Shown here: positions 451 through 7,028 of the stretch, one piece after another
Numbering within the stretch: position 1 is the first letter of the stretch
Layout of the letters: every line of letters starts with the position of its first letter
Virus record (IMG/VR): IMGVR_UViG_2630968808_000003
Span: 1-10,112 of that record
Direction: 5' to 3' (one strand)
Length of the DNA: 10,112 nt
Source: a virus
Lineage: Duplodnaviria; Heunggongvirae; Uroviricota; Caudoviricetes
Notes under the pieces: model-generated
Database searches by the model: none
Told to the model about the DNA's origin: nothing
The model's input: the letters and a program-made list of their open reading frames with translations, nothing else
Position numbers and translations under genes: made by a program

Positions 451-654
451 ATGTACCGTATGGACAAAATCAGAGAATGGTTCAGTTACAGCTTCGGAGG
501 ACTGACTGCGATGGGTGGCATTCTCTCCCTGAATGACTGGGCTGTCATCATTGGTATTCTTTGTACTGTCGGCACATTTGGCATCAACTGGTACTACAAG
601 CGCAAAGAGCGCGAGGACAGATTGAATGGCAATGTCACCGGCACTACGAAATAG
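451..654 (+). CDS. Holin, class II, likely pinholin (67 aa), with dual-start motif
   Basis: Two predicted transmembrane segments (Gly-rich [17 protein letters not shown], then [20 protein letters not shown]) and a charged C-terminal tail KRKEREDR. N-terminus MYRMDK gives starts at 451 and 460 with an Arg between, the pattern of antiholin/holin dual starts (compare phage 21 S, MKSMDK as recalled). Lies directly upstream of and overlapping a SAR-type endolysin. Confidence 0.75.
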
Positions 655-1129
655 CGTAATAGCGGCGATAAGTGGCGGGGCTATTGCTATAGCATCTGTG
701 TTAATCACTGGGCCAAGTGGTAACGATGGTCTGGAAGGTGTGAGACATAATCCTTACAAAGACATAGTTGGTGTATGGACTGTGTGTCACGGACATACCG
801 GAAAAGACATCATGCTCGGGAAAACGTATACCGAAGCAGAATGCAAAGCCCTCCTGAATAAAGACCTTGCCACGGTCGCCAGACAAATTAACCCGTACAT
901 CAAAGTCGATATACCGGAAACAACGCGCGGCGCTCTTTACTCGTTCGTCTATAACGTGGGCGCAGGCAATTTCAGAACATCTACTCTTCTTCGCAAAATA
1001 AACCAGGGCGATATCAAGGGCGCATGTGACCAGCTACGTCGCTGGGCATACGCTGGCAGTAAGCAATGGAAAGGCCTGATGACTCGTCGTGAGATTGAGC
1101 GTGAGGTCTGTTTGTGGGGGCAACAATGA
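626..1129 (+). CDS. SAR endolysin, T4-lysozyme-like muramidase (GH24), 167 aa
   Basis: N-terminal Gly/Ala-rich weakly hydrophobic segment [19 protein letters not shown] typical of signal-anchor-release domains. Catalytic spacing E-x8-D-x5-T in [16 protein letters not shown] matches T4 lysozyme E11/D20/T26. Recalled resemblance to phage 21 R and E. coli prophage RrrD-type lysozymes is unverified. Start overlaps the holin 3' end by 29 nt; an alternative start at 632 is possible. Confidence 0.9.
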
Positions 1130-1563
1130 GCAGAGTAACCGCGATTATCTCCGCTCTGGTTATCTGCATCATCGTCTGCCTGTCATGGGCTGTTAATCAT
1201 TACCGTGATAACGCCATGACCTACAAAGAGCAGCGCGATAAAGCCACATCCACAATCGCTGACATGCAGAAGCGTCAACGTGATGTAGCTGAACTCGATG
1301 CCAGATACACAAAGGAGCTTGCTGATGCTAACGCGACTATCGAAAGTCTCCGTGCTGATGTTTCTGCTGGGCGTAAGCGCCTGCAGGTCGCCGCCACCTG
1401 TGCAAAGTCAACGACCGGAGCCAGCGGCATGGGCGATGGAGAAAGCCCAAGACTTACAGCAGATGCTGAACTCAATTATTACCGTCTCCGAAGTGGAATC
1501 GACAGGATAACCGCGCAGGTTAACTACCTGCAGGAATACATCAGGACGCAATGCCTTCGATGA
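1126..1563 (+). CDS. Rz: Rz, inner-membrane spanin subunit (i-spanin), 145 aa
   Basis: ATGA start/stop overlap with the endolysin. N-terminal transmembrane helix [18 protein letters not shown] followed by a coiled-coil-like charged region. The N-terminus [30 protein letters not shown] matches my recollection of lambda Rz. The supplied ORF starts at GTG 1114, but ATG 1126 is preferred. Confidence 0.85.
1325..1510 (+). CDS. Rz1: Rz1, outer-membrane lipoprotein spanin subunit (o-spanin), embedded in the +1 frame of Rz, about 61 aa
   Basis: Lies wholly inside Rz in another frame. Strong Shine-Dalgarno AAAGGAG (1311-1317) sits 7 nt before ATG 1325. Signal peptide [20 protein letters not shown] ends in a lipobox (VSAC), followed by the Pro-rich stretch [13 protein letters not shown] characteristic of Rz1. 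The supplied ORF begins at 1298, but the first Met there lacks signal-peptide character. Confidence 0.75.
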
Positions 1564-1738: not shown

Positions 1739-1762
1739 GCCTCGCATTTGCGGGGCTTTTTT
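1739..1762 (+). terminator. Rho-independent terminator downstream of the lysis cassette
   Basis: GCCTCGC (1739-1745) pairs with GCGGGGC (1750-1756) as a 7-bp stem (6 Watson-Crick plus 1 G-U) around loop ATTT, followed immediately by TTTTTT (1757-1762). Confidence 0.7.
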
Positions 1763-1906
1763 ATATCTGAATTTCACAGCGCATCTCACGCGCATATTAA
1801 CGAGAGCCTTTCAGTAAGCGAGCCTGAGAAATGCCGTTATAGGTGGCGACCTCTCTCGGGCGGCTTTTCTGTGAGACAGGCTCACTTTCTAAAAGGTAAA
1901 GACGCT

Positions 1907-2431
1907 ATGAATAGTCATTCAGTTATTCCAGCCTTCGACTTCCGAGAAATGGTGCAAGCCAAAAACGGAGAGGTCGTTACCACATCCAGAAAAATTGCCA
2001 AGTACTTCGGCAAGCGACACGGTGATGTTCTCAGGAAAATCGAGCAGGTTAAGGCTGATTGCTCGCGTGAGTTTAGCCAACGCAATTTTGCGTCGGCTGA
2101 TTATATCGATGAACAGGGCAAGGTTCGCCCGATGTACAGCCTGACGAAAGATGGCTGGATCATGGTTGTAATGGGGTTCACCGGGAAAGCTGCTGCAGCA
2201 ATCAAGGAGAGCTATATCGCAGCATTCAATTGGATGGCAGAGCAACTGAGCCGCCGCATGGCAATTGGCGAAGAAATGCAGCACCGCTACGCCATCAAAG
2301 AAACACGCTCAAAGCTGAAAGGTACGATCGGCAGTCGATTAATGAACGAACGGAAGAAAGAGAAGCGTGTCCTGGCTGTCGAGCATGAATACATCTTGCA
2401 GGTGACACAGCCTGAACTGCTGATTAATTGA
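1907..2431 (+). CDS. rha: Rha-family phage regulatory protein (antirepressor-like), 174 aa
   Basis: N-terminal region VTTSRKIAKYFGKRHGDVLRKIEQ ... MYSLTKDGWIMVVMGFTGKAAAAIKESYIAAFNWM fits the conserved phage pRha domain as I recall it. Shine-Dalgarno AAAGG lies about 9 nt before ATG 1907. The supplied ORF extends upstream to TTG 1748, but that start lies inside the terminator hairpin and has no ribosome-binding site. A gene in this position (between the lysis genes and terS) is common in P22-like phages. Confidence 0.8.
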   Translation: MNSHSVIPAFDFREMVQAKNGEVVTTSRKIAKYFGKRHGDVLRKIEQVKADCSREFSQRNFASADYIDEQGKVRPMYSLTKDGWIMVVMGFTGKAAAAIKESYIAAFNWMAEQLSRRMAIGEEMQHRYAIKETRSKLKGTIGSRLMNERKKEKRVLAVEHEYILQVTQPELLIN

Positions 2432-2470
2432 AGATGTCATTACAAAGCCTATCTACGGGTGGGCTTGATA

Positions 2471-2653
2471 ATGAAACCGGAATTTATTCTGGGTAACCAG
2501 TTACGGCAGCACCGCGAAACAACCCAAGCCAGTAAGTGGGAAAATAACACTGGCAGCCACTGAAAGATGAACCTCCTGCCTTATGGCAAAAAAGATTCTT
2601 TGTGGTGGCGGACTGATGGAAAGACATCGGTTATTGCAGAGGCCATTCAATGA
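2471..2653 (+). pseudogene. Possible small ORF interrupted by an in-frame TGA (two same-frame ORFs of 30 and 28 aa joined across the stop at 2561-2563)
   Basis: ATG 2471 to TGA 2561-2563 (MKPEFILGNQLRQHRETTQASKWENNTGSH) and ATG 2567 to TGA 2651-2653 (MNLLPYGKKDSLWWRTDGKTSVIAEAIQ) are in the same frame, separated by one stop and one codon. A G-rich stretch GGGTGGG lies upstream of 2471. No homology could be assessed. Confidence 0.2.
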
Positions 2654-2683
2654 GTGGTCTCGACAATGGCTTATACCCTACAC

Positions 2684-2709
2684 GGGATAACTTAACTGAT
2701 ATCCCTTTT
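2684..2709 (+). terminator. Weak candidate intrinsic terminator closing the Rha module
   Basis: GGGATA (2684-2689) pairs with TATCCC (2700-2705) as a 6-bp stem with a 10-nt loop, followed by TTTT (2706-2709). The stem is AT-rich, so termination efficiency is uncertain. Confidence 0.3.
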
Positions 2710-2730
2710 AACGGATAAACGGAGCCAACA

Positions 2731-2973
2731 ATGGCAGAGATTATTCCCATGACTGAAGAACAGAAATTCCAGTTAGAGATTTACAAACTGGTCATGAACC
2801 AGAACGCAGCCGCAGAAGAAGCATTTCAATTCATCGGCACTGACGAGTTGAAGCTTGAGCTATTCAAAATTCACTTCCAGTCAGGCGGCGCTAATTCAGA
2901 TATCACGACCCGCACTATCGAAGCGGTGCGTAAATCGAAGGAAGCGTTAGACCTGTTCACTACCGGAGCATAA
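2731..2973 (+). CDS. Hypothetical small protein (80 aa) immediately upstream of the terminase small subunit
   Basis: Shine-Dalgarno GGAG 8 nt upstream of ATG 2731; its stop lies 2 nt before the terS start. The product is acidic and predicted helical. A small ORF of similar size occupies this position in P22-like genomes (recollection, unverified). Confidence 0.65.
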   Translation: MAEIIPMTEEQKFQLEIYKLVMNQNAAAEEAFQFIGTDELKLELFKIHFQSGGANSDITTRTIEAVRKSKEALDLFTTGA

Positions 2974-2975
2974 AC

Positions 2976-3416
2976 ATGGCGCGCCCAACAAAGTATCAAG
3001 AGGCGTATGCCGAACAGGCACGCAAACTGTGCTTGCTGGGCTACACCGATGCAGAACTTGCTGATTTCTTTGAAGTCAGTGAGTCAACTATTAACAAGTG
3101 GAAGCTTGATTATCCTAAGTTTTCGGAGTCCATAAAAAAGGGTAAGGCCGTCGCTGATGCAGAAGTTAGTGACCGTCTTTATCAACGCGCTATGGGCTTT
3201 GTGGCTCCAGACATCGATATTCGTGTTATTGAAAACAGAATTGTCGAAACTCCGCTTGAGAAGTATTACCCGCCTGATACAACCGCTGCCATCTTCTGGC
3301 TTAAGAACCGACAGAAGGATAAATGGCGCGACAAGGTTGATCACGAGCTAACAGGCAAAGACGGCGGCGCAATCCAGATTGAAACATCACCGATGAGCAC
3401 TCTATTCGGAAAATGA
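2976..3416 (+). CDS. Terminase small subunit (146 aa)
   Basis: Sits immediately upstream of the large terminase with an ATGA overlap. N-terminal helix-turn-helix-like segment LLGYTDAELADFFEVSESTINKWK typical of the DNA-recognition domain of small terminases. GGAG ribosome-binding site upstream. Confidence 0.8.
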   Translation: MARPTKYQEAYAEQARKLCLLGYTDAELADFFEVSESTINKWKLDYPKFSESIKKGKAVADAEVSDRLYQRAMGFVAPDIDIRVIENRIVETPLEKYYPPDTTAAIFWLKNRQKDKWRDKVDHELTGKDGGAIQIETSPMSTLFGK

Positions 3417-4828
3417 CCTCGATTAATCCTATCTTTGAACCGTTCATTGAGGCGCATCGCTACAAAGTCGCCAAAGGCGGTCGAGGTAGCGGTAAATCAT
3501 GGGCAATTGCGAGACTGCTTGTTGAAGCGGCGCGTCGGCAGCCAGTGCGTATTCTCTGTGCTCGTGAACTGCAAAACAGTATCAGCGATTCGGTAATCCG
3601 GTTGCTTGAAGACACCATAGAGCGGGAAGGGTATTCGGCTGAGTTTGAAATTCAGCGTTCAATGATTCGTCATCTCGGAACGAATGCTGAATTCATGTTC
3701 TACGGCATCAAAAACAACCCGACGAAGATTAAATCGCTAGAAGGCATTGATATCTGCTGGGTGGAGGAAGCGGAAGCGGTAACGAAGGAATCATGGGATA
3801 TCCTGATACCAACCATCCGCAAGCCATTTTCCGAAATATGGGTGAGCTTTAACCCGAAAAACATCCTCGACGATACCTATCAGCGATTCGTCGTAAATCC
3901 TCCAGATGATATTTGTCTGCTGACGGTGAACTACACCGACAACCCGCACTTTCCTGAAGTTCTCCGTCTGGAGATGGAAGAGTGTAAACGCAGAAATCCG
4001 ACACTGTATCGTCACATCTGGCTTGGTGAGCCAGTAAGCGCAAGTGATATGGCAATCATCAAACGTGAATGGCTTGAAGCCGCAACCGATGCGCACAAGA
4101 AACTAGGATGGAAAGCGAAAGGCGCTGTTGTTTCTGCACATGACCCGTCAGATACAGGGCCGGATGCTAAAGGTTATGCATCGCGTCACGGTTCGGTAGT
4201 TAAGCGCATTGCCGAAGGTCTGCTGATGGACATCAACGAGGGGGCTGACTGGGCTACTTCGCTGGCGATTGAAGACGGTGCTGACCACTACTTGTGGGAT
4301 GGTGATGGTGTCGGTGCAGGGCTACGCAGACAGACAACGGAAGCGTTCTCCGGTAAGAAAATCACCGCCACGATGTTCAAGGGCAGCGAATCGCCATTTG
4401 ATGAAGATGCACCATATCAGGCTGGAGCATGGGCTGATGAAGTCGTGCAGGGCGACAACGTTCGCACTATTGGCGATGTGTTCCGCAATAAGCGAGCGCA
4501 ATTCTATTACGCGCTGGCTGACAGGTTGTATCTGACATATCGGGCGGTTGTCCACGGTGAGTATGCAGACCCCGACGACATGCTGAGCTTCGACAAAGAA
4601 GCGATAGGCGAGAAGATGCTGGAGAAGCTGTTTGCAGAACTGACGCAGATTCAGCGCAAATTCAATAACAACGGGAAGCTGGAGCTTATGACTAAGGTCG
4701 AAATGAAGCAGAAGCTCGGTATTCCATCTCCTAACCTGGCTGATGCGCTGATGATGTGTATGCATTGCCCGGAGTCGGCTGCGCAACCCGACTATTCCAG
4801 TTACTCAATTCCTTGTGGTGTAGGTTGA
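3413..4828 (+). CDS. Terminase large subunit (471 aa; ATPase plus nuclease)
   Basis: Walker A P-loop KGGRGSGKS near the N-terminus and a Walker B-like hydrophobic stretch ending DICWVEEAE. Size and position between terS and portal are as expected. The N-terminal sequence resembles, by recollection, the Sf6-type large terminase (unverified). Confidence 0.93.
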   Translation: MTSINPIFEPFIEAHRYKVAKGGRGSGKSWAIARLLVEAARRQPVRILCARELQNSISDSVIRLLEDTIEREGYSAEFEIQRSMIRHLGTNAEFMFYGIKNNPTKIKSLEGIDICWVEEAEAVTKESWDILIPTIRKPFSEIWVSFNPKNILDDTYQRFVVNPPDDICLLTVNYTDNPHFPEVLRLEMEECKRRNPTLYRHIWLGEPVSASDMAIIKREWLEAATDAHKKLGWKAKGAVVSAHDPSDTGPDAKGYASRHGSVVKRIAEGLLMDINEGADWATSLAIEDGADHYLWDGDGVGAGLRRQTTEAFSGKKITATMFKGSESPFDEDAPYQAGAWADEVVQGDNVRTIGDVFRNKRAQFYYALADRLYLTYRAVVHGEYADPDDMLSFDKEAIGEKMLEKLFAELTQIQRKFNNNGKLELMTKVEMKQKLGIPSPNLADALMMCMHCPESAAQPDYSSYSIPCGVG

Positions 4829-4829
4829 T

Positions 4830-7028
4830 ATGGCAGAAAAAAAGATGACTGACTGGCATCGCAAGGTGCTGTGCAACTTTGATAATGCCTGGTCAGCAAC
4901 GCAGGATATGCGTGAGCAGATTATTGAGGCTCAACGTTTCGTCCGGGTATCCGGCGCACAGTGGGAAGGCAGCACAAACGCTGGTTACTCATTTGATGAA
5001 GGCAGGTTTGAGCATTACCCGCGCTTTGAACTGAATAAGATTGCCCGTGAATGTGATCGCATCATTGGCGAGTATCGACAGAATCGCATCAGCGTTAAAT
5101 TCAGGCCGAAGGATGACAAGGCATCGGAAGCGTTAGCCGAAAAGATGAACGGCAAATTCCGCGCTGACTATCAGGAAACATCAGGTGGCGAAGCGTGTGA
5201 TAACGCATTTGATGATGCTGTAACGGGCGGATTCGGTTGTTTCCGCATGTGTGCCGATTACGAAGATGAAATGGACCCAAGTAACGAGCAGCGACGCATC
5301 AGCCTTCTTCCTGTTTACGACCCAGCGACATGCGTCTTCTTCGATCAGGACAGCAAGCAATATGACCGCTCTGATGCTATGTGGGCTATGGAAATGTTCT
5401 CCATGACGCCTAAAGCGTTCGAGGCTGAATACCCTGATTCCATCGCGGCAAGCCTTTCTCGTGATGACACTGGCACTCAATATGACTGGTCAACGCCAGA
5501 TGCCATCTATGTTGGTCGCTACTACGAAGTTCGCATAGAGAAGGTGAAGCTCACGGCATGGCGCAACCCTGTTAGCGGAGAAACGGCAATCTATGATGAA
5601 GAGCAAATCAAAGATATTGTCGACGAGCTGACCGATGGCGCATTCGAACTGATTGGTGAGCGAACTGTGAAGAAACGCCGCGTTTATTGCGGCCTTCTGT
5701 CTGGCGCTGAATGGCTGGAAGAACCGAAGCGTATTCCGGGCGAACATATTCCACTCATCCCGGTATATGGGCGTCGCTCATTTGTTGATAATCAGGAGCG
5801 AATCGAAGGCCACGCAGCAAAAGCGATGGATGCACAGCGTCTTGAGAACCTGATGGTTTCCATGATTGCAGATAACGCTACTCAGGCTGGCGGTGATGGC
5901 ATTCCTGTAGTTGATGTTGACATGATTCCTGGTCCTCTCGCCAATCATTGGGCGGAGCGCAACAAAAAGCGCCCGGCGTTCCTGCCGATGGTCAGTCTGA
6001 AAAACAAAAACGGAGATATTACTGCGCAGGCTCAGGTCAGCAGTTATACGCCTCCGACACAAATGCCTCCAGCTCTTGCCGGGCTATTGCAGTACACCGG
6101 AACGGCTATTCAGCAAATTACAGGTGCGTCGCAGCTTGAGAATATGCCGAGCAACGTCGCTACCGATACCGTTGATAGCATCTTTAACCGGATGGACACG
6201 CAGTCCTATATCTACATGGACAACATGGCTAAATCCATGCGCCGCGCTGGCGTCGTGTGGCTTTCTATGGCTCGTGAAGTCTATGGCAGCGATACGCCAA
6301 TGCGCATCGTTAATGAGGACGGCAGCGATGACGTGGCGTTGATGACTGGTGAAGTGGTTGACCGTCAGACAGGGCAGGTTATCGCGCTTAACGACCTTTC
6401 GCAGGGTAACTATGAAGTGACTGTCGATGTCGGTCAGTCGTTCGCTACTCGCCGTGACGCAACGGTTAAGTCGTTACTTTCCATGCTGGCACTTATCCCA
6501 CCAGGAACGCCGAAGCACGACCTTGTATCGTCGATGATTCTCGACAATATGGACGGCGAAGGGATGGACGACCTTAAAGAATACAACCGCAATCAGTTGC
6601 TTCTGTCTGGAGTTATCAAGCCGAGAACACCAGAAGAACAGCAGATGGTTGAGCAGGCGAAACAACAACAGGCCAGTCAGCCAGATCCGGCTATGGTTGC
6701 AGCGCAAGGTCAGCTTCTTGCAGGTCAGGCTGAATTGCAGAAAGCGCAGAACGAACAGGCAGCCATTCAGGTTAAAGCATTCCAGGCACAGACTGATGCT
6801 CAGGTTGCAGCGGCAAACGTTGTGAAAATCCTCGCATCTGCCGATAGCCAGCAGAAATCTGATATCCGCGAGGCTCTGAAACTGCTCGGACAGTTCCAGC
6901 AACAGCAAGGAGACAATGCCCGTGCTGATGCAGAGCTTGTCCTGAAAAGTCAGGCACAGGGCCATGCGCAGCGCATGGACATCAGCAGCATCCTGCAAAA
7001 ATCAACTCAGCAACAACCACAGCAGTAA
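4830..7028 (+). CDS. Portal protein (732 aa), P22 gp1-like with C-terminal Gln/Ala-rich helical extension
   Basis: Starts 1 nt after the TerL stop. Size is close to P22 gp1 (about 725 aa). The last ~130 residues are Q/A/E-rich and lack helix breakers, consistent with the long C-terminal barrel helix of P22-type portals. Confidence 0.92.
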   Translation: MAEKKMTDWHRKVLCNFDNAWSATQDMREQIIEAQRFVRVSGAQWEGSTNAGYSFDEGRFEHYPRFELNKIARECDRIIGEYRQNRISVKFRPKDDKASEALAEKMNGKFRADYQETSGGEACDNAFDDAVTGGFGCFRMCADYEDEMDPSNEQRRISLLPVYDPATCVFFDQDSKQYDRSDAMWAMEMFSMTPKAFEAEYPDSIAASLSRDDTGTQYDWSTPDAIYVGRYYEVRIEKVKLTAWRNPVSGETAIYDEEQIKDIVDELTDGAFELIGERTVKKRRVYCGLLSGAEWLEEPKRIPGEHIPLIPVYGRRSFVDNQERIEGHAAKAMDAQRLENLMVSMIADNATQAGGDGIPVVDVDMIPGPLANHWAERNKKRPAFLPMVSLKNKNGDITAQAQVSSYTPPTQMPPALAGLLQYTGTAIQQITGASQLENMPSNVATDTVDSIFNRMDTQSYIYMDNMAKSMRRAGVVWLSMAREVYGSDTPMRIVNEDGSDDVALMTGEVVDRQTGQVIALNDLSQGNYEVTVDVGQSFATRRDATVKSLLSMLALIPPGTPKHDLVSSMILDNMDGEGMDDLKEYNRNQLLLSGVIKPRTPEEQQMVEQAKQQQASQPDPAMVAAQGQLLAGQAELQKAQNEQAAIQVKAFQAQTDAQVAAANVVKILASADSQQKSDIREALKLLGQFQQQQGDNARADAELVLKSQAQGHAQRMDISSILQKSTQQQPQQ

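Follow-up and report, generated by a model that had tools for sequence, protein, structure and literature searches.

The DNA analysed here (the window) is a stretch of 10,112 nucleotides (nt) from IMG/VR record IMGVR_UViG_2630968808_000003 that carries the late region of a podovirus like P22 and Sf6 (of Lederbergvirus type); its gene order is identical to that of phiv205-1, the closest phage record. Within this late operon, the rha gene and orf80 are separated by a gap that a preliminary description, made from the sequence alone, had marked as an approximately 300-bp low-coding island holding only tiny open reading frames (ORFs). The sequence and its ORF list confirm the island, and we find the gap to be a non-coding accessory-gene (moron) slot in the late operon, which is empty in this phage. 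From rha to orf80, the proposed arrangement runs through a hairpin (HP1), a hypervariable mini-hairpin, a core designated B, the insertion point after position 2628, a second hairpin (HP2), two palindromes, and the ribosome-binding site (RBS) of orf80 (Table 1). The reading that we favor, with moderate confidence, is that of a non-coding late-operon spacer that combines this cargo slot with covarying boundary hairpins.

Table 1. Features of the gap and of the genes around it, in window coordinates
Feature	Position	Strand	Description
Lysis genes	626-1563		First in the late gene order of the window
rha	1748-2431	+	Pfam PF09669 (Phage_pRha), E = 2e-28; upstream neighbor of the gap
Gap between rha and orf80	299 nt, between 2431 and 2731		Short ORFs only
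ORF 2434-2496	2434-2496	+	20 aa from ATG; 22 aa from TTG 2428
HP1	2437-2474	+	UCAUUA / CA / AAGCCUAUC-UACG-GGUGGGCUU / GA / UAAUGA; begins 5 nt past the rha stop
ORF 2471-2563	2471-2563	+	30 aa from ATG; 34 aa from GTG 2459; judged spurious
Hypervariable linker	2475-2502	+	33-nt form in the window, with a CUGG-GUAA-CCAG (GNRA-loop) mini-hairpin at 2489-2500
Module B (core B)	2503-2628		Highly conserved non-coding core; invariant TGA at 2561-2563; CCUCCU (anti-Shine-Dalgarno-like) at 2572-2577
ORF 2567-2653	2567-2653	+	28 aa; judged spurious
ORF 2583-2690	2583-2690	+	35 aa (MAKKIL...); absent from the preliminary description; judged spurious
Cargo insertion point	2628-2629		Between GACATC and G; empty in the window; placed by comparison with 39/126 loci
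HP2 (HP1 paralogue)	2630-2667	+	UUAUUG / CA / GAGGCCAUUC-AAU-GAGUGGUCUC / GA / CAAUGG
ORF 2650-2718	2650-2718	+	22 aa; equals P22 'orf25'
Module C	2671-2719		Palindromes TTATACCC-N5-GGGATAA (2671-2690) and ATATCCC-N7-GGATAAA (2699-2719); from inverted repeats and folds
orf80 (DUF2560)	2731-2973	+	Pfam PF10834, E = 1e-43; GGAG (RBS) at 2721-2724
Small terminase	2976-3416	+	Next after orf80
Large terminase	3413-4828	+	Pfam PF04466 (Terminase_3)

The cargo slot and the conserved block around it

A stretch of 300 nt without long ORFs is by itself statistically unremarkable. The gap was judged real because of comparative evidence: the block from 2437 to ~2730 recurs with 90-98% identity in 207 phage records (among them HK97, HK022, HK620, CUS-3, Sf6, P22, L, epsilon34, and ES18) without a coding signature. 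Nearly half of the complete E. coli genomes hold pieces of the region, with at least one piece of the block in 2,556 of 5,426 genomes and at least 80% of it in 656. The location is constant, with the lysis cassette (alone or joined by rha or KilA-N genes) on one side and the head-gene/terminase region on the other, whichever packaging module is present.

Loci for comparison comprised 6 annotated phages and 120 IMG/VR loci gathered through an exact 21-mer (window positions 2590-2610), 126 in all, and were joined later by further loci. In 39 of the 126, homology to the window breaks at 2627-2643 (at 2628 in 31 of the 39) and resumes at 2630-2652, and the interval is occupied by plus-strand inserts of 129-1315 nt belonging to at least six cassette types. 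The variable cargo slot that the preliminary description had given as known at this position in P22-like genomes is thus present, with the cassettes entering exactly after 2628. They encode a 118-126-aa protein of the N4 Gp49/Sf6 gp66 family (PF13876), a 61-aa protein (phrog_5425), an 80-aa protein, a 72-aa DUF551 protein, or a 59-aa protein together with a 246-aa trypsin-like protease; the sixth type is a 129-nt mini-insert. The Gp49/gp66 cassette ends directly at HP2, and the 61-aa, 80-aa, DUF551, and protease cassettes are each closed by a canonical intrinsic terminator of their own (GGTCGCTCAGGCGGCC-TTTTTTATTGCC or equivalent). HP2 stands 3' of all cassette types. When the cassettes were inspected by eye for promoters, a weak TAGAAT with a 3/6 match at -35 was seen in two cassette types only.

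The region is a precise and easily recognizable hotspot for variable accessory genes in lambdoid prophages. Its largest cargo, found in IMGVR_UViG_2588253749_000007 (~9177-10493), is the cassette with the 59-aa ORF and the 246-aa protease (Pfam Trypsin_2). The best PADLOC match of this trypsin-like protease is the protease domain of RT-Protease_XI (E = 3e-15), of the defense-associated reverse transcriptase-protease family, and the cassette is a candidate for prophage defense or abortive infection. In some phages tRNA genes lie near the HP hairpin (L138 1935-2005; L135 2228-2378; L136 3518-3674); that of L138 is found ~130 nt 3' of the hairpin, so the slot can hold tRNA cargo too.

The block is a mosaic, with recurrent breakpoints at 2437, 2486/2496, 2501-2503, 2628, 2652, 2682-2689, 2719, and 2740. 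Homology to the window begins at 2503 in P22, directly 3' of its rha stop, and stops at 2682 in L and ST64T, while ES18 carries 2438-2549 only and the O157:H7 prophages, mEp460, and Ayreon carry 2652-2719 only. This last piece, which holds module C, is the most widespread part of the region. The two palindromes of module C can also pair with one another into an alternative, terminator-like middle hairpin, GGGATA...TATCCC (2684-2705) followed by TTTT (2706-2709), which is weak (-9.4 kcal/mol), and paired TATCCCC-N4-GGGGATA hairpins likewise lie 3' of the HP hairpin in Enterobacter and Leclercia prophages. At the other end, the linker between HP1 and core B has a nucleotide diversity of 0.15 vs 0.02 in the adjoining core and occurs in relatives as a 34-nt form with a different hairpin or as a 91-nt form with two hairpins.

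P22 offers a separate observation (L127 1690-2334). Its rha and orf80 are ~830 nt apart, with 'orf25' as the sole annotation, and the portion past the shared block is not homologous to the window; the first 375 nt have a strong fold on either strand (z = -4.5 to -5.2).

The hairpins HP1 and HP2

On the plus strand, 2432-2735 folds with -104.6 kcal/mol vs -74 ± 5 in shuffled sequences (z = -6.1; the minus strand gives z = -3.1). Among 49 overlapping 300-nt segments of the window, the gap is the folding outlier on this strand, with z = -5.7 vs -3.4 for the next segment, and the homologous region of HK97 behaves alike (z = -6.6 vs -2.4). When the modules were folded separately, the signal was found to stem from HP1 and HP2, which reach -19.5 kcal/mol (z = -6.2) and -23.6 kcal/mol (z = -6.1) on the plus strand vs -11.5 and -10.2 kcal/mol on the minus strand. 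Both have a common architecture, in which a 6-8-bp outer stem leads through a 2x2 CA/GA internal loop to an inner stem of 9-10 bp, which is closed by a loop of 3-6 nt.

Searched with a covariance model of the hairpin (R1), the window yields two copies and no more, both on the plus strand (59.4 bits, E = 8e-14 for HP1; 64.7 bits, E = 4e-15 for HP2), and the minus strand scores 8-9 bits. Apart from these, the model gives 12.9 bits (E = 0.13) at the start of the portal gene (4853-4891, plus strand; CUGGCAUCGCAAG...UUGAUAAUGCCUG), a weak match that keeps the outer stem and the CA/GA loop and may be due to chance.

HP1 and HP2 are one hairpin family that is maintained by compensatory substitutions and is far more stable on the late-gene strand. 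In 24 curated hairpins, 96.4% of the cells are paired and both sides have changed in 8 of 16 pairs, which none of 500 shuffles matched; the covariation score is 0.468 vs at most 0.175 with slid partners. In a set of 45 distinct sequences that includes other genera, in which the alignment (A4) was fitted to the model and so favors pairing and the outer-stem sequence was fixed by the search pattern, 94.5% of the cells are paired and both sides have changed in 10 of 16 pairs (0/500 shuffles), with a covariation score of 0.339 vs at most 0.093 for slid controls. The cargo-bearing loci carry an alternative HP2 allele (UUAUUA-CA-AAAGCCAUUC...GAGUGGCUUU-GA-UAAUGG), whose outer part is nearly identical to HP1 and which shows paired changes relative to the HP2 of the window. 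Compensatory changes beyond those of the controls, as expected of a conserved structured RNA, are thus found in HP1 and HP2 and not in core B.

G-U pairs are numerous, and on the opposite strand they would become A-C mismatches; selection has therefore acted on the fold of the sense strand, most simply of the late mRNA. Of 39 hairpin copies found independently, 35 run in the direction of the adjacent ORFs. A non-coding RNA locus, one of the possibilities raised in the preliminary description, is partly borne out by two covarying hairpins on the transcribed strand; a discrete transcript would be putative. No promoter-like site was found in the motif, and the TTGATA/TCGACA of its 3' arm lacks a properly spaced -10 partner. 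The predicted shape, with 17-20 bp-equivalents and a 2x2 internal loop, is compatible with an RNase III site. The hairpin is not in Rfam release 15, and no description of it was found in the searchable literature by gene names or hairpin sequence.

Further HP variants, with different, co-varying inner stems, emerged when IMG/VR and one genome per species were scanned by pattern; their hosts include Enterobacter, Leclercia, Kluyvera, Pantoea, Budvicia, Siccibacter, Franconibacter, Pseudocitrobacter, Superficieibacter, and Scandinavium. As HP1 and HP2 enclose core B and the empty cargo point in the window, so do two HP copies in L256, an Enterobacter prophage, surround a 173-aa ORF (phrog_6169) whose neighbors are a KilA-N-like gene and the next late gene. 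At another locus (L026), two HP variants surround a 172-aa HNH endonuclease gene downstream of a putative Q gene, called from position and sequence. In L130, an E. coli prophage, HP1 and HP2 form a hybrid with its junction at GATAATG, and the intervening DNA, including B, is deleted; several Stx2 phages retain only ~87 nt of the region, split in two, as would fit an L130-like form. Because of the L130 hybrid, with which the Stx2 remnants fit, we conclude that HP copies recombine with each other. Of the properties of a repeated boundary motif, the flanking of variable ORFs by a stem-loop and insertion or deletion by recombination between copies are both found, and a promoter is not.

Interpretation and relation to known systems

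The likeliest roles of the hairpins, we infer, are the processing or stabilizing of late mRNA and service as recombination joints. At the cassette boundaries of the polycistronic late mRNA they would fold and act as processing sites or 3'-exonuclease barriers, insulating neighboring cistrons; being repeats of ~45 nt, they would also offer phage recombinases the homology with which to swap, gain, and delete cassettes. If a role in RNA or recombination is true, it would explain how cassettes enter a tightly packed late operon without disturbing it.

Several points weigh against the spacer with boundary hairpins. At the level of RNA, the role of HP1 and HP2 is one that we only infer. Neither hairpin is followed by a U-tract (HP1 is followed by GAAACC and HP2 by CUUAUACC), so that they are not ordinary terminators, and a consensus scan of 2200-3000 found no sigma-70 promoter. 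A stop codon (of an ORF of at least 50 codons) lies right beside the hairpin in just 25 of 110 instances by a crude test, and the rule that the hairpin always abuts a stop codon was dropped. In HP1 of HK97 two pairs are broken, and the fitting of the larger alignment to the model favors pairing in it. Each module is missing in some functional phage: P22 is without HP1, ES18 has HP1 and part of B only, and the Stx2 phages are apparently without B. Finally, core B is the most conserved part and yet is not unusually structured, and the favored reading does not account for it.

An alternative that denies any RNA function to the region is, in our estimate, rather unlikely. The gap would be a graveyard of boundary sequences left by the insertion and deletion of morons and kept alike by lambdoid recombination, or its palindromes would be DNA sites, such as operators in module C. 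Its mosaic structure and the dispensability of each module somewhere agree with this, as does the lack of homologues at 65-85% identity, which is expected of recently exchanged DNA; module C, moreover, folds slightly better on the minus strand and resembles paired operator palindromes. Against it stand compensatory double changes at 8-10 of 16 pairs, abundant G-U pairs that would be mismatched on the other strand, and a CA/GA loop that is retained while the flanking pairs switch from A-U to G-C. These three features argue for selection on a folded single strand of plus polarity.

The spacer with its cargo slot and boundary hairpins has parallels in several known systems. A moron, in the concept of Hendrix and Juhala, is by definition an extra gene with its own promoter. 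The slot resembles one in that a gene is present or absent at one precise point of the late operon, between conserved flanks, and in that four cassette types bring their own intrinsic terminator; it may differ in the promoter, of which the consensus scan detected none, and the conserved scaffold and the boundary hairpins lie outside the moron concept. REP/BIME elements and the RNase III sites of T7 are imperfect hairpins of 35-45 nt that lie inside operons near gene ends and serve as 3'-exonuclease barriers or processing sites, setting the relative stability of cistrons; REPs are chromosomal and are mobilized by RAYT transposases. The two-tier HP stem with its internal loop recalls the T7 sites as a functional analogy only, HP having no sequence similarity to either class and its part in cleavage or stabilization being putative.

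In integrons, the attC site is an imperfect hairpin at the 3' boundary of each gene cassette, and its strand-specific folding matters. HP likewise lies at the cassette 3' boundary and has a strand-specific fold, again by functional analogy only; unlike attC, it has no integron integrase nearby, is shorter, and shows neither R/L core sites nor extrahelical bases. Cassette exchange is explained more simply by homologous recombination than by an integron-type route. The closest concept is that of the promoter-early stem-loops (PeSLs) of T4-type phages, composite terminator/promoter units that are repeated between genes, flank variable ORFs, and mediate modular shuffling (PMC2839356, PMC4122927). 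HP copies similarly bracket cargo, with the HP1/HP2 hybrid marking a deletion, and differ from PeSLs in having neither promoter nor U-tract, in belonging to lambdoid temperate phages, and in being unrelated in sequence.

A wider proposal, which we advance only tentatively, is that HP (YCAUUA-CA-AAGC...GCUU-GA-UAAUGR) constitutes an undescribed cassette-boundary class of Enterobacterales lambdoid prophages, an RNA or single-stranded DNA signal at cassette 3' ends that would direct both insulation and exchange. The cassettes would then be accessory, defense, or anti-defense genes, insulated for instance by RNase III-type processing, and HP would, by analogy, be the lambdoid counterpart of the T4 PeSLs or of integron attC sites; between two HP sites, core B might then be freed as a processed small RNA. 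The flanking HP motif could be used as a search handle for cargo.

Core B, the small open reading frames, and neighboring genes

Nucleotide diversity in core B is 0.022 (2523-2589) and 0.004 (2611-2628) vs 0.096 at the third positions of orf80, which places B near the first and second codon positions of that gene and at least four-fold below the third, although these values are biased downward, and count for less in the argument, because most loci were gathered by an exact 21-mer that lies inside B. No 3-base periodicity was found in the core. Folded alone, it is not unusually structured (z = -1.1 on the plus and -1.3 on the minus strand), and the idea of B as a structured RNA was rejected, as z stays near -1 on both strands and the common changes T2551C and T2577A break predicted pairs.

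The sole relevant Rfam match in the region is that of Proteo-phage-1 (RF03044) to 2523-2558, at 16.4 bits (E = 1.3-1.8), where the gathering score is 42; neither the window nor 18 related loci reached the gathering threshold. The stretch 2527-2558 of B resembles the 3' half of the motif, and the central 28-nt and 26-nt hairpins of RF03044 are reduced to 4 and 8 nt in B. A scan for a shared 17-mer gave about 48 genuine-looking Proteo-phage-1 relatives. Aligned by eye, AGCCAGUAAGUG...GGGAAAUAACACUGGCAGCC of B corresponds to AGCCGGUAGUG...GGAAACAACACCGGCAGCC of 46 Proteo-phage-1-like sequences, with a G-C to A-U exchange at 2531/2551, and both then have a hairpin that exposes ACCUC; the single-stranded tail (AAAUAACACUGGCAGCC vs AAaAACaCCGGCAGCC) and the preceding AGCCAG/AGCCGG element are also shared. 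The corresponding hidden Markov model match (E = 4e-4) is inflated, the 17-mer having been preset by the scan pattern.

From this likeness, core B might be, or derive from, a small regulatory RNA related to Proteo-phage-1 that displays a CCUCC anti-Shine-Dalgarno loop and is cut, perhaps at HP1 and HP2, out of the late transcript; conservation on a par with the first and second codon positions of the neighboring gene would suit such an RNA. We nevertheless regard it as unlikely. The score falls far short of the threshold (E ~1.3 with all families counted), B lacks both central hairpins of the motif, and B alone is unstructured. In five loci, for which gene functions were guessed from position and sequence in an ORF listing, the Proteo-phage-1-like RNA apparently lies in a different slot, between Q-like and holin-like genes of high-G+C lambdoid phages. 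Scans of the region gave no promoter and no more than two weak minus-strand terminator candidates, B is absent from the L130 prophage, and the Stx2 phages have only ~87 nt of the region. The resemblance of B to Proteo-phage-1 is a lead, not family membership.

Two observations stand beside core B. A well-conserved RNA-like element (GTAGCCAGG..CCTGGAC, GTCGATAGCCGGTAGTGCGAC, and GGAAACAACACCGGCAGCC, then a hairpin exposing ACCUCAC), probably the true Proteo-phage-1 motif, was seen at L142, L155, L156, L158, L163, L176, and L181 and at ~40 further IMG/VR loci; its apparent place in the five loci inspected, which is that of the lambda late-promoter leader, suggests a role in late transcription or in the control of holin translation. 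In the invariant part of B, TGTGGTGG at 2600-2607 is a 7/8 match to Chi; a Chi hotspot was rejected, as GCTGGTGG is absent from both strands of the window.

The tiny ORFs of the gap are chance ORFs in a non-coding scaffold, and none of them is a gene. Five further ORFs of 21-49 aa, on the minus strand, had not been listed in the preliminary description. Diversity at the first, second, and third codon positions is 0.032/0.014/0.096 in orf80, the pattern expected of a real gene. The four small ORFs give 0.081/0.051/0.086, 0.044/0.037/0.036, 0.062/0.048/0.049, and 0.068/0.054/0.099 and, with orf80 as the contrast, no third-position excess. ORF lengths vary from locus to locus, that of the upstream ORF (2471-2563) through insertions and deletions. 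None of the four peptides has a PHROG match, whereas the true cargo proteins match PHROGs or Pfam, and RefSeq annotation (PGAP) of the E. coli genomes listed calls no coding sequence in the gap.

It is accordingly very improbable that any of them, such as 2583-2690 or 2650-2718, encodes a real micro-protein, as the preliminary description had allowed, even though some depositors have annotated them (Dewey, Huey, P22 orf25, ST64T/L orf118) and ORF 2650-2718 stays at 22 aa in 76 of 83 loci, with AGAGG 7 nt 5' of its ATG. That ATG is missing from the alternative HP2 allele of the cargo-bearing loci, and the constraint across 2630-2667 is accounted for by the compensatory changes of the hairpin. 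ORF 2583-2690 is 35 aa long in 52 of 124 loci and has at least 8 different, unrelated C-termini; its start is lost to AAG in 4 loci by ORF scan and to T2584A in 8 by the site table, and its frame is shifted by the length of an A-run (A7 in six loci, A5 in place of A6 in ST-87).

The preliminary description had also observed, correctly, that ORFs 2471-2563 and 2567-2653 lie in one reading frame, with nothing but TGA (2561-2563) and AAG between them, and had raised the possibility of a recent nonsense mutation. The TGA, within CCACTGAAAGATG, is present in 126/126 loci, none of which has an uninterrupted ORF, and is kept in the divergent sal5, ST-87, and L, which were found by BLAST rather than through the 21-mer. 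Of 88 loci, 35 have the full 30 aa of ORF 2471-2563; in the other 53 it is truncated or frame-shifted and measures 3, 21, or 9 aa. A 1-nt difference between linker forms breaks its frame. ORF 2567-2653 keeps its 28 aa in 69 of 126 loci, and T2584A creates a TAA in its frame. A tblastn search with the read-through product returned the same locus only, in 161 phage records, and no distant intact homologue. With an invariant stop, an upstream half that is so often broken, and flat diversity in the second ORF, a decaying accessory gene of ~59 aa, freshly interrupted by the TGA or expressed by read-through, is scarcely credible.

In annotation, these ORFs should therefore not be called genes, which applies also to deposits as 'hypothetical protein', to P22 orf25, and to the N-terminal third of ST64T/L orf118. 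For the latter (L004 1647-2003, corresponding to window 2583-2682), the first ~33 of 118 codons are the conserved non-coding block. The real gene of L and ST64T probably starts downstream at ATGGCAGAGATTACAGCA (MAEITALTELQQ...), where the RBS and first codons are the same as those of orf80.

Searches for other known elements gave little at this locus. At the gathering threshold, Rfam had nothing in the window, and in the 18 related loci it gave tRNAs, C4, isrK, and isrJ, elsewhere only; a tRNA/tmRNA scan returned nothing, and an intrinsic terminator scan returned two weak minus-strand candidates only. The minus-strand 'terminator' annotated in phage L (~2561-2605) is weak and was not adopted. 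Known small RNAs were set aside on position, the lambda PreS/LPR RNA belonging to a different region, Pas, AgvB, AsxR, and STnc100 lying near Q/holin and having no Rfam match here, and STnc6030 of BTP1 being antisense to the tailspike gene. In one related prophage (L010 1745-1933), isrK and the C4 antisense RNA lie next to each other, above the Rfam threshold, ~11 kb upstream of the region.

Among the flanking genes, the Rha domain occupies the portion of rha that starts at ATG 1910, and the gene ends with TGA at 2429-2431; the large terminase gene is followed by those for portal, scaffold, and coat. The 146-aa protein at the small-terminase position has no Pfam match at E <= 0.01, and the label 'HNH homing endonuclease' that phiv205-1 gives this gene looks like a mislabel. 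HK97 keeps the first ~80 nt of orf80 as a remnant (L001 1795-1876, corresponding to window 2731-2812) upstream of an HNH endonuclease gene. By ORF scan, the start of this remnant opens an unannotated 45-aa ORF (MAEIILMTEEQKF...WQPMG), which overruns the annotated HNH start in another frame.

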